Shown here: positions 22,186 to 63,269 of the stretch, piece after piece
Layout: each line of letters begins with the position of its first letter
Numbering within the stretch: the stretch's first letter is position 1
Sequence record: PQ724393.1
From: a phage
Reading direction: 5' to 3' (one strand)
DNA: 64,000 nt
Made by a program: the position numbers and the translations under genes
Notes under the pieces: generated by a model
Database searches by the model: none
What the model saw: the letters and a program-made list of their open reading frames with translations, nothing else
Told to the model about the DNA's origin: nothing

Positions 22186-22457
22186 AAATTGGAGGTATAC
22201 ATCATTAAATAACGGTGTATATCTTCATATCCTTCATTAAATTGCTCTATAAGAGTATCACGTTCATCTTCAGTTAAAGACTTAAATAATTTGTTATAAG
22301 ACAAACCATTAAGTTCCTTTCCATGTTCATTACGAATACCTAACTCATTCAAAAAGGCAATAAACTCATCACGACGTTGCATGATGTCTTCACAATCCGT
22401 TTTAATCAAAATGGAAACAATAGTAGCAATTTCGGAAACGATTTCAATTTTAGTCAT
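22182..22457 (-). CDS. asiA: Anti-sigma-70 factor AsiA
   Basis: 91 aa; IASILIK...FIAFLNE...FNEG...YRYL pattern as in T4 AsiA. Confidence 0.75.
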   Translation of the reverse strand: MTKIEIVSEIATIVSILIKTDCEDIMQRRDEFIAFLNELGIRNEHGKELNGLSYNKLFKSLTEDERDTLIEQFNEGYEDIHRYLMMYTSNF

Positions 22458-24224: not shown

Positions 24225-24857
24225 TTAAATTGCGTTGGTTACGGTTTTGATAACTTCAGATGATACGTTTTGGAAGTCGATATAAGTATTCTTACCACCA
24301 GTCTTAATCTTAACATCAAGGTTCAAGGAAGTAAACACTTGTTTTTCTTTATCAGTCATATTATAACCGAAGATACGCATCATTCCATCACGACGGACTT
24401 CGATTTGACGAATACCATTGGTGCGTTTAGCGAATCGAACTTCAAGGTTGCTACGGTTTTCAGCAATTTCACGAATCTCGATACGGTCTTCCAACAAAGA
24501 TTTAACTTCATCAGCCAATACCACCATTTCAGGAGTAACACCACGTGAGCTACGCGTTTTACGTTTTTCCAACATCTCTGGAGCATTTTCAGAAGCGAAC
24601 AGGTCGGCAGCTTTTTGAACTAGGTCCATTGCTTCACCTGTAGCCACCAGTCCATCACCAGATTTTTCGATGAATCCTTTCTTAATCAATACACCGATGT
24701 TAGAGTTAACTACCGCAGCACTAAATTGCTCACTCAGGGCTTCACGGACTTCGCCTGAAGTGATGAAGTTATTCTTGATGATATGTACTAAGATAGAAGC
24801 GGTTTTTTCATTCAGGACGTCTTCAGAAGCTTTGATGATGTAAGTAATTTTAGACAT
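24225..24857 (-). CDS. motA: Middle transcription activator MotA
   Basis: 210 aa; MSKITYIIKAS...VNSNIGVLIKKGFIEKSGDGL...RTNGIR...MRIFGY resembles T4 MotA. Confidence 0.8.
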   Translation of the reverse strand: MSKITYIIKASEDVLNEKTASILVHIIKNNFITSGEVREALSEQFSAAVVNSNIGVLIKKGFIEKSGDGLVATGEAMDLVQKAADLFASENAPEMLEKRKTRSSRGVTPEMVVLADEVKSLLEDRIEIREIAENRSNLEVRFAKRTNGIRQIEVRRDGMMRIFGYNMTDKEKQVFTSLNLDVKIKTGGKNTYIDFQNVSSEVIKTVTNAI

Positions 24858-29554: not shown

Positions 29555-30586
29555 TTATTTGTATTCGTTTGCAAACTGTTCAGTGACGTCTTCCAGAACT
29601 TCATAATAACATACACGCATTTTAGCATCACCGTAATCGACTGGGATACTAACAACATCACGCGGGTTAACTTTACATGAAACTACTTTACAGTTTGAGC
29701 TACCAAAATGTCTGATATAGCTACGAGAGCAAACATGCAGACCTGTTGAACAAGTTACTTCGTCGTCATCATTTACACGCGAACGAGGCATTTTAACTGG
29801 TTTGCCTGGCGAGTTATCAAACGTACCGGTACGACAGTCGGTGTAATCGGAGTTAACTACCTTCCATGTAATAAAGTGGCCATCTTCAGTGATTTTGATA
29901 TCGTTTGCAACCAGGAAGTCGAACAGACGCTGTACAGCTTTTTCGCTTGGGTTTTCTAACAGATTCTCAAGGAACGGCAGGTAGAATTCGAAGTCTTCAC
30001 CATTTTCCATTGAGGTGATAATACGGTCAATCAACCCTGAACGCAATTCGATACCTTGATAAACCAGACGTCCACCTTCAATACGAACGTTACCTTTAAC
30101 GAAAGCCTTAACAGCTTCTTTAATGGAAATCAGTTTAATCGCATCATCGAAACGAGATTCTTTAAGAGCCTGTACGATGGCATCGAAATGTTTGTTCTTA
30201 TTAGTGGTGTTCCATACTGTACGGCCTTCAGTGATGGATACGAATTTAGAACTCGCGTTCCAAATAATTTCAGGACGAGAACCACCAATAGTAGCTTCAA
30301 CAGGAACTACACGAGGCTCGTTAGGAACTGTTACTTTGATATTTCCGGTAATAACCACTTCTGCCGGGGCATTAAGAGGTACAGTAGGTGCTTTTTTAAG
30401 AGATTCGGCTAATTCTTTAGCTACTTGCGAACGTTTAGCTTCTTCAGCATTTTTCAGGACTTTACGAATGGTATCAACCGAAACACCATACCAGTCAGCT
30501 AGTTCTTGCTGAGTATAATTACCAGATTTATAGAGGGAAACTACTTTCTCTTGTTCAGATTTAGCCAGGCACTTAATATTGTACAT
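29555..30586 (-). CDS. rIIB: rIIB membrane-associated protein
   Basis: 343 aa, T4 rIIB-like; directly downstream of rIIA. Confidence 0.8.
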   Translation of the reverse strand: MYNIKCLAKSEQEKVVSLYKSGNYTQQELADWYGVSVDTIRKVLKNAEEAKRSQVAKELAESLKKAPTVPLNAPAEVVITGNIKVTVPNEPRVVPVEATIGGSRPEIIWNASSKFVSITEGRTVWNTTNKNKHFDAIVQALKESRFDDAIKLISIKEAVKAFVKGNVRIEGGRLVYQGIELRSGLIDRIITSMENGEDFEFYLPFLENLLENPSEKAVQRLFDFLVANDIKITEDGHFITWKVVNSDYTDCRTGTFDNSPGKPVKMPRSRVNDDDEVTCSTGLHVCSRSYIRHFGSSNCKVVSCKVNPRDVVSIPVDYGDAKMRVCYYEVLEDVTEQFANEYK

Positions 30587-35485: not shown

Positions 35486-35746
35486 TTAATCAAATCGAAT
35501 GGTCGACTTTTTAAAGAATAACCCAGAACAAACTGTTCCTTCAACCCTTTTACCTGTCGGCCCTACAGCAATAAAGCCTGTACGCTGGAAATCATCTTCA
35601 GAACAGCCGAATAAGTTGTATCCTGTGATTTGGATTTGTTCGTAGCCATTTGCATCCAATACACGGGTAGCATTATCGGCATCAGTACAACCAACCAACG
35701 AAACTGCTAGTACAAGAGCCGCAATAGAACGATTAACATATTTCAT
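35486..35746 (-). CDS. Putative lipoprotein, 86 aa
   Basis: Signal peptide with lipobox LVGC at residues 17-20. Confidence 0.5.
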   Translation of the reverse strand: MKYVNRSIAALVLAVSLVGCTDADNATRVLDANGYEQIQITGYNLFGCSEDDFQRTGFIAVGPTGKRVEGTVCSGLFFKKSTIRFD

Positions 35747-54684: not shown

Positions 54685-55079
54685 GGATGATATGCCTTAT
54701 AACTATCAAGAGTTCCTTCACGAACCAATTCTTTAAAGTGGTCTGGACGGATTGCTCGGTCATCGATGATAAAAGTATAACTCGGCTTGTGTGTAAGCAA
54801 ATTGTGATATTTCAATCCAATTTTTTCAAGGTTCTTAACCAATGCAGGAACTACTTCAACCAAGATTCGACCTGGGCCACATGAAGTCATGCCACGGGCA
54901 GTGAATAATGTAATCTCGTACCCTTCATCATAAAGCTTATTAATCATGGACACCATTTCGGTGTCCGGTTTAAAGTTCTCATAATCACGGTCATGGTTCC
55001 AAATCGTGATTGTGTTATCGATATCAAAACATAAATGTGGCTTATTTTCTACTCGATGCGACATTAAATTTTCTTCCAT
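54681..55079 (-). CDS. Small HAD-superfamily phosphatase
   Basis: HAD motif I FDIDNTIT, motif II LFTAR, Lys in THKP, motif IV FIIDD. Confidence 0.6.
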   Translation of the reverse strand: MEENLMSHRVENKPHLCFDIDNTITIWNHDRDYENFKPDTEMVSMINKLYDEGYEITLFTARGMTSCGPGRILVEVVPALVKNLEKIGLKYHNLLTHKPSYTFIIDDRAIRPDHFKELVREGTLDSYKAYHP

Positions 55080-56767
55080 TGTTTGTGGAGTTCAGTAGAA
55101 CCTGTAGGTTTATATTTTACACCAGTTTCCTGGTCAAGCAAAACCCACTTATCAGGACAACGAGTAATAATTTGAGCCGTGATAGGGTCACGAACTTCAT
55201 CGACAAATTCACCAGTAATAAGCTTACGCTTACGAGGATGCCGCTTCAGCAGCACACTCAGTTGGTACAAACCGTTATAATAAGCACCCAGAGCTTTCAG
55301 AGGGTTATTCTTAAAGTAACCTGCCAGAGCCATCCAAATAACAGCAATCCAGAGCTTGTGCTTAAATGTGCACATAGGAATATCGTCTAAAGGCATAACC
55401 TTTTCAATATCAACGAATACACGAGTTCCATTACGAGTTAATCCACCCCATAGAGGGTCTGAGTTAAATTTGTCATAGCCATCGATAGAATAAAGCACCT
55501 TAGCTTCATCATAAATCGCAGGGCCTTTAGAACTATTACCGAAATAACCACGTGGGTCGATGATTTTAATATCACCTTCGTCCGACAGCATAATATTACT
55601 GTAGTGCGGGTCGCCATGAATAAGTTGGTACGGCTCTTTATGTTCAGACAGAATTTCTAGTGCGTGGCGGAGAAGTTTTTCAGGGTCGCCTACTTTGAAA
55701 TCGTTAACATGGGTAATGCCTTGTGGAGCAAAGCCTTCAATCAATCCAGCAATAGAAGCATTACGAATAAGGACCTTGTCCAATACTTCTTTCTTAACAT
55801 CAGAATACCATTGCTCATCGGACGGATTATCGATAGTTCCACCAAATGAACGTAATGCACTAATGACCTTATAAACCATGAGGACTTTAGTTTCTTTAGA
55901 CATAAACCGGTAGGCATCTGCCATGGTGCGACCAAAGATACGTTCCATTTTAATGAATTCGCCTGGAGCAAAGTCTACAATGCTCGGAACAAATTCAGAA
56001 TCAATAGAATTATACCAATTGATTTCTTTAGATTGGATTTCTTTACCTAATTCGTTGGTAGGTACTTTAATAGCCAGATTCTCAGTGAACTCTAATTTAT
56101 TAAATTCACGGTTAATTTCAGAATCTTCATGGGCCCTAGCCAGTTTCAATTTGTCACCGACATCAACCACAAAGTCCAGCTTACGTTCAGTCAAATGGAC
56201 CATCGAATCCAGGTTGTCTGCAAGGTCTTCGCCATAATTAGAACGGTCGAAACCTGTCCAATTAGCCACCTGATACAAACCAACCACACCACCGCCAGTA
56301 CCAATTTCACGCAAGTACGGTTCTTCAAATGTAAAACGACAGTCGGTCCCATAGGTATAACAGTAGTCGTTATCCCACTCAACTTTATGACCTTCAGGAA
56401 TAATATCACACCAGTTAAACAAGACATTATGCCCGATGATATCTTCGGCAATGCAATCGATAGCATGAGCTGAACCGTTGGCCACATCTACGTTACGAAT
56501 AGTGAATTTAGGCTTATCACTGGTAATCATGTTAATGGATTTAATGTAACCCTTAACGAGGTCATTAAATTTGCTGTGAATAACCAGAATAATTTCATCT
56601 GATTGGTTACTATACAAATCATACAAATGTTTTAGTACTGTATGCTGTTTGTAGTTAACCAATACCTTCGGGATTTCGTTAGTAATTGGATACAACCGTG
56701 AGCCAAGACCCGCGCCTAAAATAACAACCTTTTTCATTATCTGTTCCTCAAGTGAATGTAGGTACAT
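55064..56767 (-). CDS. Bifunctional sugar-1-phosphate nucleotidyltransferase / APH-like sugar kinase (start may be at the internal MKKVV)
   Basis: N-terminal RmlA-like ILGAGLGSRLYPITNEIPK; C-terminal kinase Brenner-type motif LIHGDPHYSNIM and IIDPRG. Confidence 0.65.
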   Translation of the reverse strand: MYLHSLEEQIMKKVVILGAGLGSRLYPITNEIPKVLVNYKQHTVLKHLYDLYSNQSDEIILVIHSKFNDLVKGYIKSINMITSDKPKFTIRNVDVANGSAHAIDCIAEDIIGHNVLFNWCDIIPEGHKVEWDNDYCYTYGTDCRFTFEEPYLREIGTGGGVVGLYQVANWTGFDRSNYGEDLADNLDSMVHLTERKLDFVVDVGDKLKLARAHEDSEINREFNKLEFTENLAIKVPTNELGKEIQSKEINWYNSIDSEFVPSIVDFAPGEFIKMERIFGRTMADAYRFMSKETKVLMVYKVISALRSFGGTIDNPSDEQWYSDVKKEVLDKVLIRNASIAGLIEGFAPQGITHVNDFKVGDPEKLLRHALEILSEHKEPYQLIHGDPHYSNIMLSDEGDIKIIDPRGYFGNSSKGPAIYDEAKVLYSIDGYDKFNSDPLWGGLTRNGTRVFVDIEKVMPLDDIPMCTFKHKLWIAVIWMALAGYFKNNPLKALGAYYNGLYQLSVLLKRHPRKRKLITGEFVDEVRDPITAQIITRCPDKWVLLDQETGVKYKPTGSTELHKQWKKI

Positions 56768-57606: not shown

Positions 57607-60318
57607 TTAAAAGTCGAACATATCAAATAATGTTGCTTTTTTCTCGTAGTCGATTTTAGCAGACTCAGTAAAACCAGTCAGAGGCTTGATAAAGGTCTTT
57701 TGGAACAGTACGTTGTAGTCCATCCAACGGAGGACTTGGTCACGAATCTGAATCGGAAGTTCAATACCTGACGGCCATGCCATACAAGCTTCACCGAACG
57801 GGTTGCCTTCTTTAAGCGGCAGTACATATACCTTTTCACCATCAACGATACGAGGCATAGTCAAATCACCTGCAGAAGCACGCATGTAAGCTAAGCAACC
57901 TTTGATGTGGTACGGGCATTTAGAACCAGGGAATCCGCCTTCATTATATTTCTCGATGTTGTTAGCACTGGATACTGCTGCAATGCTTACATAGTTGAGT
58001 TCGTTAAATTCCTTATTAAACTGTTTGAAATATTCTTGCAAAGATGCCTCACCTTCCTGAAGCATACGACGGATACATTCCTTCAGAGCTTTCTGAACTG
58101 CTTTAGGTGTACTTGATTTCTGAGTTTCGAGGCCCATGATTTTCAAGTGTGGTTCGGCATAACGAGTACCTTCCATGTCCCAAACGTTCAGTGCATAACG
58201 TTTCTTACCTGTCCAGAATCCACCAAGACCTTTAGAACCAAGTGGAGGACCTGCGATAGCTTCTCGGTCCATGAACATCAAGTGCTGTTTGTTGTTCATG
58301 TACTCGCACATCTCACGGAAGCCTGCATCAATAGCCGGTTCCATACGTTCACGTGCAAATTTATCTAAGAAGTCAACCCAGTGGTTAGTATCACGGAATT
58401 TGTCTTCGCCTACTTTATTGATGATTGCATCAGCCTTAACATAAATGGAGTCAGTATCACCATAGAGCACGAACTTCTGGTTTTCAGTCTTGCACACACC
58501 ATTCAGGTATTCGTTAACCTTACGTTCAATCCATTGGAGGGCCATTTGACCAAACAGTGTGATTGCAGTTGCGTTCCTGAGGTCGTAATAACGGAACCAT
58601 ACGTTACCAAGTGCACCATAAAGGGAGTTGATAAGCAACTTACGGTTAATCTGAGCAGTCATACCTGCAACTTCGGTACGTTCAGCTCTGAACAACATTT
58701 CTCTTAAAGAAGGTGCTGACAGCGTTTTAATCTTGGCTTTGATTTCGTCAGAGAAGTCAAAACGATAATCGATATCCAGTGGACTATCAGCCGAGAGATT
58801 AGGATTTTCTAATGCTTCTTTAATTAACTCACCATTACGTTGAGCTGCAAGCATATAACCTTTATGTTCTTTACGTTGTAAGAACACCTTAGTGATTTCT
58901 GTAGGAATAACACCATCGCGGTCTTTATAGTACATCATGCCGTTAGGAGAGCAACTGTAGACGTCGCTAGGACGCGGAGCTGTTCCGGCAATATATTCAT
59001 GTATCGGTGCGTTAGCGAATGTCCCTGCGATGGTCTCTGGGCTTATATTCACTTGTCGAATGATACTCGGGTACAGAGATGTAAGGTCGAAACTCATTAC
59101 ATATTTGTAAGCGTTAGGAATCGGTTCCTTAACGAAAGCACCAGGATAAGGTTGAACCACGTGTGAACGAGCTTGTGGAATTACCTTGCCTTGTTCTTTA
59201 AGGCTATTAAAGATAATAGCGTCCCAAGTCTTAATTGGACTAAACACCGACTGAATCTGCATCTTGGCATAATAACCCATGTCCAAACTCAGAAGAATGA
59301 ACTGACGCTTCATATCAATCTGCACTACACGATATACGTCGATAATGTTATAGGAAATATATCGTTGGTGGTTCGTCTCACGTAACTTAGAGATTGGACC
59401 ATCATATTTCAACTTACCCACTTTCAATTCATATTCAGAAACATAATCCAGAGAATAAGAAGGCTGGTTGGTGAAGCTGAATTTTTTATAGAGGTCGATA
59501 TAATCCAGAACAGAGATACCGAACAATGTAATGATTTCACGAGCACCGTACATGTTCTCAATAACTTTAACACGAGTTTTACGATGTGGGCTTAATCGCT
59601 TAGCAGTGTTCTCACCGAACAGATTTTTCAGACGGTTATAAACGTACGGTACGTCAAACGACTCAACGTTCCATCCAGTCAAAATCACAGGAGTTTTCTG
59701 TTGCCAGAAATTCAAGTACTCAAGCATCATTTCTTCTTCAGAATTAAACGGAAGATAAACGATTTTGTCAATGATTTCCTGTGGAACTTCGTCACCACCT
59801 TCGTCTTGGAGTTTCTCAGCGATTTTAATCGACCACTCTTCAACAGTACCATAAGGCGAAACTAAAAGGTCGAATACATAGAATTTATCGTCAATCGAGT
59901 CGTAGTGGGTAATGGCATCGATAGGATGTTTAGCCTGAGCTGGTTCAGGGAATCCATCAGGAGATGTTACCTCGATGTCGAAGTTAGCAATACGAATCTT
60001 AGAAGAATCATATTTGATTTCTTTACGATAGGTATCAGACAAATAGGCTAATTTATAGTCGTCCATACCCAGGGCTTCGAGACCCATATCATCCATACGT
60101 TTCATCCATTGGGATGCATCACGCATAGAATCGAATTCTTTCTTAACACAACCCTTACCATAGATATCAATGTATTTTACGGCTTGCTCTGGGTTAGCAT
60201 GCATAAACATTGTGGGCTTGTATGGAACTTCACGACTACGTTCGTTACCATTTTTATCGATGTAACGTTCGAGAATATTATCACCGATTTGTTCGACTGT
60301 CAAATAGAATTCTTGCAT
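57607..60318 (-). CDS. 43: DNA polymerase gp43 (family B), start at MQEFYLTVEQIG; track ORF extends to 60378
   Basis: Exo and Pol motifs (FDIEV, YGDTDS); close resemblance to RB69 gp43 along the whole length; SD AAGGAAA before ATG. Confidence 0.9.
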   Translation of the reverse strand: MQEFYLTVEQIGDNILERYIDKNGNERSREVPYKPTMFMHANPEQAVKYIDIYGKGCVKKEFDSMRDASQWMKRMDDMGLEALGMDDYKLAYLSDTYRKEIKYDSSKIRIANFDIEVTSPDGFPEPAQAKHPIDAITHYDSIDDKFYVFDLLVSPYGTVEEWSIKIAEKLQDEGGDEVPQEIIDKIVYLPFNSEEEMMLEYLNFWQQKTPVILTGWNVESFDVPYVYNRLKNLFGENTAKRLSPHRKTRVKVIENMYGAREIITLFGISVLDYIDLYKKFSFTNQPSYSLDYVSEYELKVGKLKYDGPISKLRETNHQRYISYNIIDVYRVVQIDMKRQFILLSLDMGYYAKMQIQSVFSPIKTWDAIIFNSLKEQGKVIPQARSHVVQPYPGAFVKEPIPNAYKYVMSFDLTSLYPSIIRQVNISPETIAGTFANAPIHEYIAGTAPRPSDVYSCSPNGMMYYKDRDGVIPTEITKVFLQRKEHKGYMLAAQRNGELIKEALENPNLSADSPLDIDYRFDFSDEIKAKIKTLSAPSLREMLFRAERTEVAGMTAQINRKLLINSLYGALGNVWFRYYDLRNATAITLFGQMALQWIERKVNEYLNGVCKTENQKFVLYGDTDSIYVKADAIINKVGEDKFRDTNHWVDFLDKFARERMEPAIDAGFREMCEYMNNKQHLMFMDREAIAGPPLGSKGLGGFWTGKKRYALNVWDMEGTRYAEPHLKIMGLETQKSSTPKAVQKALKECIRRMLQEGEASLQEYFKQFNKEFNELNYVSIAAVSSANNIEKYNEGGFPGSKCPYHIKGCLAYMRASAGDLTMPRIVDGEKVYVLPLKEGNPFGEACMAWPSGIELPIQIRDQVLRWMDYNVLFQKTFIKPLTGFTESAKIDYEKKATLFDMFDF

Positions 60319-60375
60319 TTCATTTCCTTTATAGACGAGTGATTGTCTTTTGTTTGTTGATGAATCATTATACTC

Positions 60376-60395
60376 CAAAAAGGGACCGAAGTCCC
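60376..60395 (-). terminator. Hairpin GGGAC-UUCG-GUCCC + U5, followed by TGGAGTATAAT
   Basis: Stem-loop and U-run seen; TATAAT hexamer immediately 3-prime. Confidence 0.5.
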
Positions 60396-60400
60396 TTTGC

Positions 60401-60616
60401 TTAAATTTCTATTGTTTGACGTTTAATGGTTGAATTACCATCTTCGTCTTTAGTTTTAATCATAGCCTGGAAGACTTTCTGACCTGGATGTAGCAACTTA
60501 TGGAGTTCTTTTTGAAATTCTAGTTGGAGCTCTTCGGAAAGGTCAAAAACAGTTTGAGTTGGTGAAAGTCCGTATACCTCTTTAAGACGTTCACACGTTT
60601 CAATTTCAAGAATCAT
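60401..60616 (-). CDS. Hypothetical protein, 71 aa (track ORF trimmed)
   Basis: ORF between regA and 43; longer reading overlaps regA. Confidence 0.35.
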   Translation of the reverse strand: MILEIETCERLKEVYGLSPTQTVFDLSEELQLEFQKELHKLLHPGQKVFQAMIKTKDEDGNSTIKRQTIEI

Positions 60617-60617
60617 A

Positions 60618-60980
60618 TTAATTACCAATGCTATACTTAGACAGTAGTTCCCAGTCATTTTTCTGTTTAAAGGAAATGACACGGAAATTATTAGTGATTT
60701 CGAACAGCTCAGAGTCGTCTACGATATCAATAAGTCCCCAATCCTTAAGAAGCTGGGCGATAGAATCGCGGCGTTGGTAGTCTTCACCATCGATATCTAC
60801 CTGGCGACCGTCCATACGCAACATCTCTTTAAAGTGGACAATATAATACCGTCCTTGCTTTTGCAAAATGTGGCAGGATTGATATAGTTTCTTTTCTTTA
60901 TTATTGGCGATACCCATACGAGTCAGGGTCTCTTTCACTTTTAGGAAGTCTTCAGGTTGCTTCAGAGTAATTTCAATCAT
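60618..60980 (-). CDS. regA: Translational repressor RegA
   Basis: 120 aa; MIEITLKQPEDFLKVKETLTRMGIANN...NNFRVISFKQK nearly as in T4 RegA. Confidence 0.85.
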   Translation of the reverse strand: MIEITLKQPEDFLKVKETLTRMGIANNKEKKLYQSCHILQKQGRYYIVHFKEMLRMDGRQVDIDGEDYQRRDSIAQLLKDWGLIDIVDDSELFEITNNFRVISFKQKNDWELLSKYSIGN

Positions 60981-60986
60981 TTTAAT

Positions 60987-61559
60987 TTACCATTCCAATG
61001 CTTTCTTTTTCAAGTCTTTTTGTTCTTTCACATTTTTGGTCACGGATTTCAAGAACTCGTCCGTAACCAACCCTTTCATCTTCTTAAGCATTGCCGGAAG
61101 ATGGCCTTTAATTTTATAAGTCTCGAGATAACGATAAGCGTCATCATTATTAATTGAATGGTATTTCATCAATAAACGAGTAATAAAAACTACACTAACT
61201 TCATCATCATGGGCCTTAGCCCATTTACCAAATCTCTTACCCTTAGGAACAGCATGTAAAAGATAGTTGAAGTGACTTTGGTCGTCAAGTTTAAGACAGT
61301 TAACCATCGCGGCTTGCATAATGCAATCTACGTGTTGGCTCAAACTATTATCTAGCCAAAATTGATTATAGTTTTCTGATTGGGCCAAGTTACGTTGTTT
61401 TTTACCGTATGTGATATCGTTCATAATGGCAAACAATTCGTTTTCAGCCTTTTCTTTAAATGAATCGGCTAAGGCTTGAATAGCAGCGTCGTTACGTTGT
61501 TTCCAAGCAACTTCATGTTCATTCAGTTCAACGTCATCATCAAAAAGACTTATAGCCAT
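60987..61559 (-). CDS. 62: Clamp loader small subunit gp62
   Basis: 190 aa; overlaps gene 44 stop; synteny 45-44-62-regA. Confidence 0.75.
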   Translation of the reverse strand: MAISLFDDDVELNEHEVAWKQRNDAAIQALADSFKEKAENELFAIMNDITYGKKQRNLAQSENYNQFWLDNSLSQHVDCIMQAAMVNCLKLDDQSHFNYLLHAVPKGKRFGKWAKAHDDEVSVVFITRLLMKYHSINNDDAYRYLETYKIKGHLPAMLKKMKGLVTDEFLKSVTKNVKEQKDLKKKALEW

Positions 61560-62509
61560 TGGAGCTCCAGAGCAAGTTGGATAAACAGATAAGTCAGGTG
61601 AATTTCTGGGTTAGCCGCAATACCATGGTATTGGTTATTTTCACCGACGATTTCATACATTCTAACAATGCTTGGCCCGGGCAATTTACCATAGAGTTCG
61701 TTAGCCAATGTCATAATAAAGTTGGCATAATCATTGACATGACGTGGAGCTAATGCACGGAGTTCTTTAAAGTTTTTATCTTTCAGTGCGGCCACTACTT
61801 CATCAATAGGCGAATTGGTATTCATTACAATACTCAAAATGCCTGTATCGATTTTACCACTTGAGGAATAACGGTCTAGTTGGTTAATTGTTTTACGGAA
61901 GTCAGGGAAGTTTTGTTTAACTAAAGCAGCAATAACTTTAAGGTCTTCGACTTCGATATTTTCGTTTTTACAAATTGCTACTGCACGATGAATCATTTCT
62001 TTCATCATGGCAGTTTGGTCAGCTGGAGTGGCTTCACCAAATTTAATTACACGGCAACGAGATTGAAGTGGACCGATAATACCATCAATATTGTTTGCTG
62101 TAATAATTACAGAACAGTTTGAGGAATAGGCCTCTAAGAATGAACGAAGGTGGCGTTGAGCTTCAGCAACACCAGCACGGTCGAATTCGTCAATAACAAT
62201 TACCTTACGTTTACCTTCGATAGATTTAGAAGATGCAAAACGAGTAAGTTCGTTACGAACGAAATCAATACGGCAGTCAGAACCGTTAACAAACAACATG
62301 TCTGAATTTGTATCAGCACACAATGCTTTAGCTACGGTAGTTTTACCTGTGCCTGGTGAAGCAGAGACTAGGATAATGTTAGGGATTAGGCCCTTATTAA
62401 CAATTGCTTGGAGAGTTTCTTTATCATGAGCAGGCAGAATACACTCAGATAAAGTACCTGGACGATATTTCTGTTCGAACATGAATTCATTATTGTTTAC
62501 TGTAAGCAT
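61550..62509 (-). CDS. 44: Clamp loader ATPase gp44 (AAA+)
   Basis: 319 aa; Walker A SPGTGKTT, DEFD Walker B, SRC motif. Confidence 0.9.
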   Translation of the reverse strand: MLTVNNNEFMFEQKYRPGTLSECILPAHDKETLQAIVNKGLIPNIILVSASPGTGKTTVAKALCADTNSDMLFVNGSDCRIDFVRNELTRFASSKSIEGKRKVIVIDEFDRAGVAEAQRHLRSFLEAYSSNCSVIITANNIDGIIGPLQSRCRVIKFGEATPADQTAMMKEMIHRAVAICKNENIEVEDLKVIAALVKQNFPDFRKTINQLDRYSSSGKIDTGILSIVMNTNSPIDEVVAALKDKNFKELRALAPRHVNDYANFIMTLANELYGKLPGPSIVRMYEIVGENNQYHGIAANPEIHLTYLFIQLALELQWL

Positions 62510-62547
62510 ATTAATTTCCTCAGGTTTGTTTTTACATTATACTCCAA

Positions 62548-62564
62548 GGGAGGAATATCCTCCC
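62548..62564 (-). other. Hairpin GGGAGGA-loop-UCCUCCC followed by TGGAGTATAAT upstream of gene 44
   Basis: 7-bp stem; same hairpin-then-TATAAT arrangement as upstream of gene 43. Confidence 0.4.
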
Positions 62565-62570
62565 TATGCT

Positions 62571-63269
62571 TTAGAACGAGTGGCTTGAGCCTGCTTCCAT
62601 GGCCAATACATAAGAAGCTTGTGAACCTTCAAACTTAGCTGCAAAACGAGCATCCTGACCTTCACCGCGGGCCCATAACAACACATGATAATCGGCTGGC
62701 ATCATTTTCATATTGGTTTTGTTAATGATGAACTTAAAGTCAGGACCATCATGGTCAGCTACTACCAAAGAATACAGTGGACGAGTTAATTCTTTATCGT
62801 CGACTTGTTTATAACCGTTGATAACAATTTTACCATCGTCTACAGTGATTGCAAATGTATCAATACTCAGACCAGAGGACACTCGCATCAGCTGCTGGTA
62901 ATCTTCGGCTTTAAGGTCGAAAATAACTTCAGCCACAGGGAACGGGATAGCTTTGCTTGGGAATGCGATTGTGCTTGGGTCAGCAATAGGCCACTTAATT
63001 GTTGAACGTTGGTCTTTAATAATTAATGTGGTTTGGTCTTCACTTACCGAAACTTCAGCACTTTCCGATACCAAAGACAGAATACTTAAGAAGCCATTCA
63101 AATCATAGATTGCTGCTTCGATATCGAAGGTGTCGCTTACAGTGGCTTCACCATAACTTGCACCGGTAACAGATCGGGTCAGAATGGTGTTACCCGGTTT
63201 AAGCATAATGCCTGGGTTAATACCGGAGAAGTTTTTAAGAATGTTCAGGGTTTCTTTAGAGAATTTCAT
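62571..63269 (-). CDS. 45: Sliding clamp gp45
   Basis: 232 aa; close to T4 gp45 (LNGFL, FNFIINKTNMKM regions). Confidence 0.85.
   Translation of the reverse strand: MKFSKETLNILKNFSGINPGIMLKPGNTILTRSVTGASYGEATVSDTFDIEAAIYDLNGFLSILSLVSESAEVSVSEDQTTLIIKDQRSTIKWPIADPSTIAFPSKAIPFPVAEVIFDLKAEDYQQLMRVSSGLSIDTFAITVDDGKIVINGYKQVDDKELTRPLYSLVVADHDGPDFKFIINKTNMKMMPADYHVLLWARGEGQDARFAAKFEGSQASYVLAMEAGSSHSF

Follow-up and report, generated by a model that had tools for sequence, protein, structure and literature searches.

The polymerase gene 43 and the clamp-loader gene 44 of this phage are each preceded by a stable hairpin and, directly 3' of it, by the identical 13-mer TTGGAGTATAATG with a perfect TATAAT. 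Most probably (we would put it at roughly 70%), each of these two sites is a compact transcription punctuation cassette of the replication gene cluster in which a hairpin is coupled to a -10 element. The earlier note had described a hairpin followed by a short shared sequence upstream of both genes and an ACAAAC in the leader of each, and both observations are borne out by the sequence. The layout as such has been known in T4 since the 1980s, so that the finding is real and mostly ordinary.

The window, i.e., the whole stretch of 64,000 nucleotides that was analysed, comes from a Dhakavirus (JS98/JS10-like) with 97-98.7% identity to Dhakavirus genomes over the gene 43/44 region. Its replication cluster has the order 45-44-62-regA-(small ORF)-43 and is transcribed leftward, on the minus strand. 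Like T4, the phage encodes both proteins on which middle transcription depends, MotA at 24240-24857 (tblastn, 51% identity, E 8e-56) and AsiA at 22191-22448 (tblastn, 51% identity), and canonical MotA-box promoters are present elsewhere in the window. The features discussed below are the following:

60333..60348, minus strand: gp43 translational operator hairpin AGAC-AAUCACUC-GUCU, assigned from its MFE fold and T4 homology, adjoining the Shine-Dalgarno sequence and the start codon (ATG, 60318-60316)
60359..60362, minus strand: predicted P43-type transcription start, 5-7 nt past the hexamer, with the A at 60361 as the likeliest position
60366..60378, minus strand: the 13-mer TTGGAGTATAATG at site 1 (upstream of gene 43), its TATAAT being by T4 comparison the -10 of the T4 P43 orthologue
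60379..60398, minus strand: hairpin 1, AAAGGGAC-TTCG-GTCCCTTT (as RNA, AAAGGGAC-UUCG-GUCCCUUU), -10.9 to -11.5 kcal/mol
60395..60404, plus strand: inverted MotA-box match CTTTGCTTAA (PWM score 8.1) at -44..-35 of site 1, overlapping the stop codon and the first hairpin bases
62504..62523, minus strand: gene 44 translation initiation region GAGGAAAUUAAUAUG with the ATG at 62509-62507, outside the shared element
62535..62547, minus strand: the 13-mer TTGGAGTATAATG at site 2 (upstream of gene 44), a candidate clade-specific "P44" -10, a RegB-type site, or both
62547..62565, minus strand: hairpin 2, AGGGAGGA-TAT-TCCTCCCT (as RNA, AGGGAGGA-UAU-UCCUCCCU), -12.5 kcal/mol
62564..62573, plus strand: inverted MotA-box match CTATGCTTTA at -44..-35 of site 2 (PWM score 10.4), matching site 1 in register

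Both sites are built in the same way, with a stable GC-rich stem-loop just past a stop codon and a perfect TATAAT shortly after it. At site 1, hairpin 1 starts 2 nt past the TAA (60403-60401) of the small ORF downstream of regA and is followed on the minus strand by TT, GGAG (60376-60373), TATAAT (60372-60367), and G. At site 2, hairpin 2 starts 5 nt past the gene 45 stop codon (TAA, 62573-62571) and is followed by T, GGAG (62545-62542), TATAAT (62541-62536), and G. Counted relative to the hexamer, the sites are alike in register at -45 to -32 and -25 to -6, with 10/11 identical positions in the flank AAGCA(A/T)AGGGA (-42..-32) and unbroken identity from GGAG through the G after TATAAT (-18..-6); the hairpin apex alone differs between them. 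No third copy of the exact 12-mer TGGAGTATAATG exists in the 64 kb, and the true extent of the repeat is the 13-mer. We rejected a repeated 12-mer alone as a significant signal because the window holds 551 of them compared to ca. 229 in Markov simulations. More telling is the arrangement, since a TATAAT lies within 10 nt downstream of only 2 of the 68 minus-strand hairpins with a dG of -8 or lower, and these two are sites 1 and 2. Folding of the 45-nt stretches gave modest z-scores (-2.06 and -2.13), and an Rfam search of 60200-62700 gave no match at E <= 1. Two further ideas about the shared letters were dropped: a mini-ORF starting from GGAG-N4-AUG in TATAATG, whose G is replaced by T in JS98/JS10-like loci and by A in T4 and whose frames are not conserved, and "TAA+GCA" as a general stop-codon context, which is found at just 4/95 minus-strand ORFs.

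Conservation was followed across ca. 40 related loci. Upstream of gene 43, the order of stop codon, hairpin, T run, TATAAT, and operator hairpin is kept although stem sequences are diverse, and orthologous versions of hairpin 1 with compensatory stem changes are seen in ca. 20 lineages. Stem pairs have changed on both sides at 5/6 positions at site 1 and 6/6 at site 2, while the "100% paired" state of these alignments is partly circular because they were assembled from hairpin calls. At gene 43, hardly any lineage departs from TATAAT, and the preceding GGAG varies (GTAG in VR26/VR7-like loci, AGAG in L016, GGGG in L034, L036, and L021). At the position of site 2, almost all lineages have a hairpin, yet the gene 44 copy of the shared block is restricted to the Dhakavirus clade: the block is unchanged throughout the Dhakavirus-like loci L003-L007 and L009, whereas other lineages have merely GGAGTA(T/A)T or nothing, and TATTGA, TATTAA, or TAATAA stand in place of the hexamer. 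In seven Dhakavirus-like loci, not one position varies in the 37-nt leader that runs from hairpin to gene 44 ATG, while several synonymous differences are seen in the neighboring gene 45 codons and the loop is variable, which points to constraint on the leader, though not specifically on the hexamer. A permutation test with 14 genomes gave no sign that the two sites evolve in concert within genomes (p = 0.52). Both junctions are indel hot spots, with a regA-43 gap that is bimodal within several lineages (75-98 nt vs 200-330+ nt) and a Seg-like ORF inserted between genes 45 and 44 in L008 and L011.

Comparison with T4 is most informative at site 1. The T4 spacer between regA and 43 reads AAGGGGC-TTCG-GCCCCTT ATT TGGAGTATAAT, and next comes the classical operator hairpin; the two phages share the location between the regA stop codon (or that of the small inserted ORF) and gene 43 as well as the succession of UUCG-loop hairpin, T run, TTGGAGTATAAT, gp43 operator hairpin, SD, and ATG. 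They differ in the stem (GGGAC/GUCCC at site 1, GGGGC/GCCCC in T4), the spacer between hairpin and -10 (6 nt vs 8 nt), the loop core (ACTT vs GCTT), and an extra 71-codon ORF between regA and the hairpin in the Dhakavirus. Table 1 of the Hinton review lists the mapped middle promoter P43 between regA and 43 with a start at 29933, which we place on the T4 sequence 5 nt past the same TATAAT; this listed start is 2 nt nearer to the hexamer than usual. Because 25 of 30 mapped T4 middle promoters have a 6-nt distance from hexamer to start, we predict the start at site 1 near 60361. A CUUCGG hairpin directly before a mapped middle promoter is also found in T4 at P39 (with CCGGAGTATAAT), P47, and PmobB. 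Two sequence records agree with this picture, as the 1984 T4 GenBank record X00769 marks the TATAATs of both g44 and g43 as -10 regions and the record of phage DalCa annotates both hairpins as rho-independent terminators.

The -10 elements at the two sites have no convincing partner of the usual kind. We scored MotA boxes with a PWM from 24 mapped T4 boxes, on which the known ones reach 0.5 to 11.6. The best forward match at allowed spacing scores -4.8 at site 1 (AGGGACTTCG, spacer 14) and -3.9 at site 2, close to the background median of -4.1 for all 76 TATAATs in the window, so that neither site has an (a/t)(a/t)(a/t)TGCTTtA near -30, 12 +/- 1 bp from the -10. T4 P43 itself scores just -0.1 at an atypical 15-bp spacing. 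The CUUCGG loop was considered as a MotA box and rejected, since its PWM score is at background level and the (G/A)CTT core alone is box-like, with ACTT as the whole resemblance at site 1. Other promoter classes fare no better: a sigma-70 early or extended -10 promoter is contradicted by the lack of a -35 (GGGACT at site 1 and GGGAGG at site 2) and of TGn, with neither site in the sigma-70 scan, and the late promoter motif TATAAATA is absent from both. We also considered that sites 1 and 2 together with T4 P43 and its compact orthologues might form a distinct class of MotA-dependent promoters with an inverted box at ca. -44..-35, in which the box may sit about one helical turn upstream of its usual place with the terminator hairpin between box and -10. 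Such a match is found in 14/14 compact lineages without a forward box (scores 6.3-11.0), is missing from 7/7 lineages with a forward box at -34/-33, and recurs at gene 44 of Dhakavirus in the very register of the gene 43 match. Still, we find this class highly doubtful, because the match drifts over 5 nt among lineages that are not independent of each other, takes three of its bases from the stop codon, is seen at no other mapped T4 middle promoter, and would conflict with the strongly oriented geometry of the MotA/AsiA complex in cryo-EM. A general enrichment of inverted boxes before -10-like hexamers was not found either, with 28 inverted and 28 forward matches before generic TAnnnT hexamers.

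Hairpin 1 is a candidate intrinsic terminator or 3'-end stabilizer. Its GC core is followed by UUUUU, three of these U's being able to pair with AAA. A terminator scan called neither site on the minus strand, and the plus-strand version of hairpin 1 scored as terminator-like. Hairpin 2, with the U tract merely UU before GGAG, is a poor classical terminator and is rather a candidate attenuator or 3'-end stabilizer. The T4 spacer between 45 and 44 resembles site 2 in its GC hairpin directly past the gene 45 stop codon, a TATAAT within a few bases, and an A-rich leader leading to GAGGAAAUU-AUG. It differs in that GGGC-UUCG-GCCC is directly followed by UUUAUAAUUU, a better U-rich tail without GGAG, whereas at site 2 the hairpin is GGGAGGA/UCCUCCC, its loop has 3 nt, and TTGGAGTATAATG is complete and identical to that at gene 43. 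T4 RNA-seq reads per nt are 91.8 for gene 45, 56.5 for 44, 36.4 for 62, 32.4 for regA, and 45.4 for 43, so that gene 43 is the sole rise (1.40-fold in wild type, 1.14-fold in motA-am), while the 44/45 ratio is 0.62-0.66 with or without MotA and gives no sign of a promoter there. These values are not specific for termination because the drop from 44 to 62 is equally large without a hairpin. We found no genome-wide map of T4 start sites or terminators in the literature.

Taken as punctuation, each GC-rich hairpin would be encoded at the end of the preceding message, the one at gene 43 being of the CUUCGG type with a U5 run. Such a hairpin would most likely stop or attenuate RNA polymerase arriving from upstream promoters and protect the 3' terminus of that message against exonucleases. 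In this reading, TATAAT, five or six bases past the hairpin, would serve as a sigma-70 -10 element, and AsiA/MotA-modified RNA polymerase would start ca. 6 nt downstream of it at site 1, near 60361, to give a short gene 43 mRNA with the separate gp43 operator hairpin (60348-60333) in its leader. From the analogy to P43, we infer that events in this phage would run as they do in T4. The hairpin at gene 44 would be the counterpart of the T4 45/44 hairpin, and the identical -10 block behind it may give a weak, clade-specific restart. The suggestion of a terminator/promoter pair in the earlier note thus holds up for gene 43, with P43 orthology, a hairpin past the stop codon, and compensatory changes. 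Its promoter half is uncertain at gene 44, where there is no MotA box, T4 has no mapped P44 (Table 1 of the Hinton review), and the TATAAT is not conserved beyond the clade. Dhakaviruses may have gained a clamp-loader promoter that T4 lacks.

Three other readings compete with the hairpin and -10 cassette. As its second option, the earlier note had named part of an RNA operator. The shared element would then serve gene 43 in autoregulation by gp43 and gene 44 in repression by RegA. Both genes are indeed translationally regulated in T4, as the note had stated, and the gp43 operator includes a hairpin (PMC3014915). That operator, described in the same source, is nevertheless a separate hairpin 20-40 nt downstream of and outside the shared element. 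Position and 8-nt loop of the Dhakavirus operator hairpin match those of T4 (GAGCC-UAAUAACUC-GGGCU), and a hairpin with this characteristic loop is conserved in nearly all lineages, whereas the shared element, which stops 60 nt short of the ATG, has a UUCG loop instead of an (A)AUAACUC-type loop by the SD. RegA targets lack structure, are rich in A and U, and include or adjoin the initiator AUG, with AAAUUAUGAUU as the site at T4 gene 44 (PMC3014915). By analogy, the start codon region of gene 44 (62504..62523) is the expected place of a RegA-type operator, but the site 2 element stops 25 nt short of the AUG and adjoins a stable hairpin. Moreover, RNA from a P43-type promoter would lack the shared element altogether, hairpin sequences are free to vary between lineages in a way that fits structural rather than sequence-specific recognition by a protein, and Rfam gave no match. 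With the gp43 operator in a separate downstream hairpin and a RegA-type site at the gene 44 start codon, the operator reading is unsupported, and we consider it extremely improbable. A better contender at the RNA level, though rather unlikely, is that RegB together with S1 cuts the single-stranded GGAG 3' of the hairpin on read-through RNA, leaving the upstream message capped by a protective 3' hairpin and releasing the downstream cistron. According to Durand et al. 2006 (PMC1702504), RegB cuts GG^AG in intergenic regions with the consensus GGAGRAYARAA and GGAGUAUAAAA as minimal motB substrate. Like such sites, ours have an intergenic GGAG that is predicted to be single-stranded and is followed by a C-free A/U stretch of 7 nt: GGAGUAUAAUG agrees with the motB substrate at 9/11 positions and with RAYARAA at 4/7 downstream positions, and the T4 site upstream of gene 43, GGAGUAUAAUA, agrees with motB at 10/11. 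RegB has been reported to stimulate gp43 synthesis (PMC3014915), a RegB homologue with 59.5% identity is found in the Dhakavirus-like phage MN04, five lineages keep GGAGUA(U/A)U at the gene 44 site though not the -10 hexamer, and a GGAG upstream of the -10 is not general among the 9 canonical middle-promoter candidates in the window. On the other hand, GGAGUAUAAUG departs from the consensus at position 11 (G in place of an A that is among the most conserved positions) and position 10 (U, rare with 3/26), the transcripts concerned are middle and not early ones, the GGAG varies at the gene 43 site as described above, and the T4 45-44 spacer has none. Two sources (PMC3014915, PMC1702504) further have RegB cutting just 26/68 of the GGAG/U motifs that were tested in intergenic regions of T4 and most middle transcripts resistant to it. 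Processing may also act alongside a promoter, so that TATAAT in DNA and GGAGUAUAAU in RNA would be one two-purpose sequence; if the -10 block doubles as a RegB cut site, a single sequence would tie transcription restart to RNA processing.

The remaining alternative concerns gene 44, where the copy of the block could be a passenger whose TATAAT has no promoter role. Recombination or conversion would have copied the flanks of the gene 43 cassette into the 45-44 spacer of a Dhakavirus ancestor, as has been proposed for PeSLs, the promoter-early stem-loop cassettes of RB49 and phi1 (Arbiol et al. 2010, PMC2839356). The near-identical flanks in register, the unrelated sequence that relatives carry at site 2, the indels at both junctions, the lack of a mapped P44 in T4, and the same paper's mention that the plastic g43 region of JS98 has PeSL-like sequences all fit this idea. 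A simple recent copy is nevertheless insufficient to explain a hairpin apex that is wholly different between the sites, the invariant 37-nt leader argues for constraint, and the permutation test saw no general resemblance of the two sites within genomes. We consider a passenger unlikely, slightly more so than RegB processing. Likeness to PeSLs themselves is partial. Both are composite intergenic cassettes of a terminator-like G/C stem-loop and a promoter, stem-loop and promoter boxes may overlap or adjoin each other (here, the hairpins end 5-6 nt before the -10), and both are associated with variable gene content, as relatives have insertions at both junctions. PeSLs, however, are present in many copies and carry strong early promoters of the sigma-70 type that have a -35 box and AT-rich DNA upstream, whereas sites 1 and 2 are two copies that have no -35, are not sigma-70-like early promoters by our scan, and sit within a conserved replication module.

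With the hairpin and -10 cassette as preferred reading, the map of this Dhakavirus replication cluster gains a likely end for the regA message, a likely start for that of gene 43, and the correct place of the gp43 operator. For annotators, it carries the warning that the hairpin adjoining TATAAT is not this operator. Neither the possible clamp-loader promoter nor the possible RegB cut would change the general picture of T4-type gene regulation. Separately, the window contains further cassettes of a hairpin followed by a promoter, e.g., at 35487, 49559, 45061, 24963, 7661, and 33403, and clearer PeSL-like cassettes with GTTTAC -35 boxes are also seen elsewhere in it.

Genes 45, 44, 62, regA and 43 lie on the minus strand in a region with 97-98.7% identity to genomes of Dhakavirus, a group of T4 relatives (e.g., JS10, JS98, dhabil and fDHCT2), and the window also encodes MotA and AsiA, each ca. 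51% identical to the T4 protein. As the earlier note had described and this analysis confirmed, a GC-rich hairpin followed by a shared sequence precedes both gene 43 (site 1) and gene 44 (site 2), and both sites could be read out in the direction of transcription:

62571-63269, minus strand: gene 45
62573 to 62535, minus strand: site 2, TAA-AGCAT-AGGGAGGA-TAT-TCCTCCCT-T-GGAG-TATAAT-G
61550-62509, minus strand: gene 44
60987-61559, minus strand: gene 62
60618-60980, minus strand: regA
60401-60616, minus strand: small ORF of 71 codons between regA and hairpin 1
60403 to 60366, minus strand: site 1, TAA-GC-AAAGGGAC-TTCG-GTCCCTTT-TT-GGAG-TATAAT-G
57607-60318, minus strand: gene 43

The predicted folding energies are about -11 kcal/mol for hairpin 1 and -12.5 kcal/mol for hairpin 2. 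The exactly repeated 13-mer, TTGGAGTATAATG, is confined to these two sites in the 64 kb. A repeated 12-mer alone carries little weight in a sequence of this length because 551 were observed against ca. 229 expected; what is unusual is the context, as among the 68 minus-strand hairpins with dG <= -8 only those of sites 1 and 2 have TATAAT within 10 nt downstream. Numbered relative to this hexamer, the sites correspond in register over positions -45 to -32 and -25 to -6, with the hairpin top alone differing. Hairpin 1 (60379-60398) is also terminator-like on the plus strand (AAAGGGACCGAAGTCCCTTT followed by GCTTAAATTT) and may thus work bidirectionally.

In T4, the regA-43 spacer reads TAA-GC-AAGGGGC-TTCG-GCCCCTT-ATT-TGGAGTATAAT-ATATC, followed further 3' by the gp43 operator hairpin GAGCC-TAATAACTC-GGGCT, SD and ATG, while its 45-44 spacer carries a GGGC-TTCG-GCCC hairpin directly followed by TTTATAATTT. 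The 1984 T4 record X00769 already annotates the two hexamers ("-10 region (g44)" and "-10 region (g43)"), and in the record of phage DalCa the two hairpins are annotated as predicted rho-independent terminators. Mapped T4 middle promoters listed in the Hinton review include P43 with its start at 29933, about 4-5 nt past the TATAAT (29943-29938, locus L085). This distance is shorter than the 6 nt typical of mapped T4 middle promoters (25 of 30), so the P43 start was either mapped ca. 2 nt off or is unusually near its hexamer. When the 30 mapped starts from the first 50 kb were placed on the T4 sequence, a CUUCGG hairpin directly followed by a middle promoter was also found at P39 (with CCGGAGTATAAT), P47 and PmobB.

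The initial idea that the CTTCGG loop serves as a MotA box was unsupported by scores from a PWM built on 24 mapped T4 boxes. On this scale, where known boxes range from 0.5 to 11.6, site 1 reaches -4.8 and site 2 -3.9 (median of all TATAATs in the window, -4.1), and T4 P43 reaches -0.1 with an unusual 15-bp spacing. In more distant relatives, a proper forward MotA box lies between hairpin and -10 (e.g., TTTTACTTTA or TTATGCTATC, with 12 bp to the hexamer in each case), and the P43-type promoters of the compact lineages are therefore atypical. Canonical MotA-box promoters do occur in the window, e.g., AAGTGCTTTA, 11 nt and TATAAT upstream of rpbA. The probable promoter status of site 1 thus rests on orthology with the mapped T4 start rather than on consensus. 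The proposal of a terminator/promoter pair was essentially right for gene 43 and is unproven for gene 44, where not even the CTT core is present at site 2 and P44 is absent from the Hinton review list; we estimate a probability of about one in three that site 2 acts as a promoter.

Indirect evidence comes from T4 RNA-seq read densities, in reads per nt (Table S1 of PMC6024815):
gene 45: wild type 91.8, motA-am 6.27
gene 44: wild type 56.5, motA-am 4.00
gene 62: wild type 36.4, motA-am 2.29
regA: wild type 32.4, motA-am 1.65
gene 43: wild type 45.4, motA-am 1.89

Gene 43 shows the sole rise along the T4 cluster (1.40-fold in wild type, 1.14-fold in motA-am), consistent with stimulation of P43 by MotA. 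The 44/45 ratio stays at 0.62-0.66 in all six conditions, so these data show no MotA-dependent restart at gene 44 in T4. Since the 62/44 drop is similar in size with no hairpin there, these data are not specific proof of termination at the 45/44 hairpin.

Among 80 loci anchored on RegA, about 40 from roughly 20 distinct lineages share a stop codon, GC hairpin, T run, TATAAT, operator-type hairpin, SD and ATG 5' of gene 43, with stems that vary by lineage (GGGAC, GGAGCC, GGGGC, GGGAG, GGGCC and others). Changes on both sides affect 5 of the 6 stem pairs at site 1 and all 6 at site 2, though the 100% pairing is partly circular because the alignments were made from hairpin calls; what argues for conservation is a strong predicted hairpin of differing sequence in the same place in every lineage. 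At site 1, TATAAT is nearly invariant and the preceding GGAG common (alternatives GTAG, AGAG, GGGG and TGGG). Across lineages, site 2 generally has the hairpin, and the sequence 3' of it varies: Dhakaviruses have the full 13-mer, the VR26-like, CIP9-like, L016 and L034 lineages only GGAGTA(T/A)T with no usable -10, T4-likes TATAAT without GGAG, and the remaining lineages neither.

The regA-43 gap is bimodal within several separate lineages (75-98 nt vs 200-330 nt, up to 780 nt, in loci L003-L043), as seen in Dhakavirus-like L006 vs the rest, VR26 vs VR7-like, T4-likes and CIP9-like loci, so the small ORF is variably present, always 5' of the hairpin/-10 cassette. In the relatives L008 (1995-2470) and L011 (1819-2469), an insertion of 476-617 nt takes the place of the 45-44 spacer, usually 46-75 nt, and the hairpin cassette is missing. 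The product begins ...YICYH..GRHR..YHGSG and resembles a GIY-YIG (Seg-type) homing endonuclease; its ORF forms an in-frame fusion with gene 44 in L008.

The earlier note had also considered the element as part of an RNA operator and suggested comparison with the T4 gene 43 operator. That operator is a separate hairpin 3' of the shared element, in the window AGAC-AAUCACUC-GUCU (60348-60333), which adjoins the SD and fits the published T4 and RB69 operators (PMC3014915). RegA sites are AU-rich, lack structure and sit at the AUG (PMC3014915), and the one expected at gene 44 is as follows:

62523-62504, minus strand: expected RegA-type site of gene 44, GAGGAAAUUAAUAUG

Because both operators lie outside the element and RNA initiated at a P43-type promoter would not include it, we reject the operator reading. 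An Rfam search of the region gave no match. A different RNA-level layer, in which the phage endoribonuclease RegB would cut at the GGAG of the motif (as RNA, GGAGUAUAAUG), would be compatible with the terminator/promoter reading rather than exclusive of it, and we consider it possible but unlikely. RegB cuts GG^AG with the consensus GGAGRAYARAA, and its minimal motB substrate GGAGUAUAAAA (PMC1702504) is matched at 9 of 11 positions by the window motif and at 10 of 11 by the T4 site 5' of gene 43. Synthesis of gp43 is reportedly stimulated by RegB (PMC3014915), and a Dhakavirus-like phage has a RegB homologue. GGAG ahead of the -10 does not characterise the nine canonical middle-promoter candidates in the window, and site 2 shows conservation of GGAGUA where the hexamer is not conserved, so some RNA-level role is plausible. 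However, RegB cut only 26 of 68 tested T4 motifs (PMC1702504), most middle RNAs are resistant, and motif positions 10-11 deviate from the consensus.

Considerably more doubtful is a putative inverted MotA box as a promoter feature. AAGCA(A/T) directly 5' of both hairpins is the complement of a high-scoring box (CTTTGCTTAA 8.1, CTATGCTTTA 10.4, both at -44..-35 in the same register), and this match occurs in 14 of 14 compact lineages without a forward box and 0 of 7 lineages with one. Yet three of its bases are the stop codon, its position varies over 5 nt between lineages, which are not independent of one another, and inverted hits are no commoner than forward ones before generic TAnnnT hexamers. 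Moreover, all other mapped T4 promoters lack the pattern, and the MotA/AsiA complex structure is strongly oriented. A third stop codon plus GCAA (TTTAAGCAATACC) at 56800-56764 (minus strand) is an inverted MotA-box match with a score of 9.4 at -44 from a TATAAT that overlaps the ATG of a 567-codon ORF (55064-56767), with no hairpin.

The hairpin/promoter arrangement was recognised in T4 as early as the 1980s and is part of a wider habit of T4-type phages to join stem-loops to promoters; new here are only the clade-specific full copy 5' of gene 44, the RegB-type match and the inverted MotA-box match. The window has several other hairpin-then-promoter cassettes, most of which have an early-type GTTTAC -35 box:

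49559-49497, 48562-48537, 45061-45000, 24963-24900, 7661-7600, 6642-6617 and 33403-33350, all minus strand: early-type promoters (GTTTAC ... GATACTAT) preceded by terminator-like hairpins, or stem-loops overlapping the -10 region
35487-35440, minus strand: canonical hairpin-then-MotA-box cassette, AAGGGC-TTCG-GCCCTT, then TTATGCTTTA, 12 nt and TAATAT, like T4 P39 and P47

The early-type cassettes look like the promoter-early stem-loop (PeSL) cassettes of RB49 and phi1, and PeSL-like sequences have been noted in the g43 region of JS98 (PMC2839356). Among the early-type cassettes, the block CATGATACTATAGACCTATCAACTAA is repeated in 3-5 copies.
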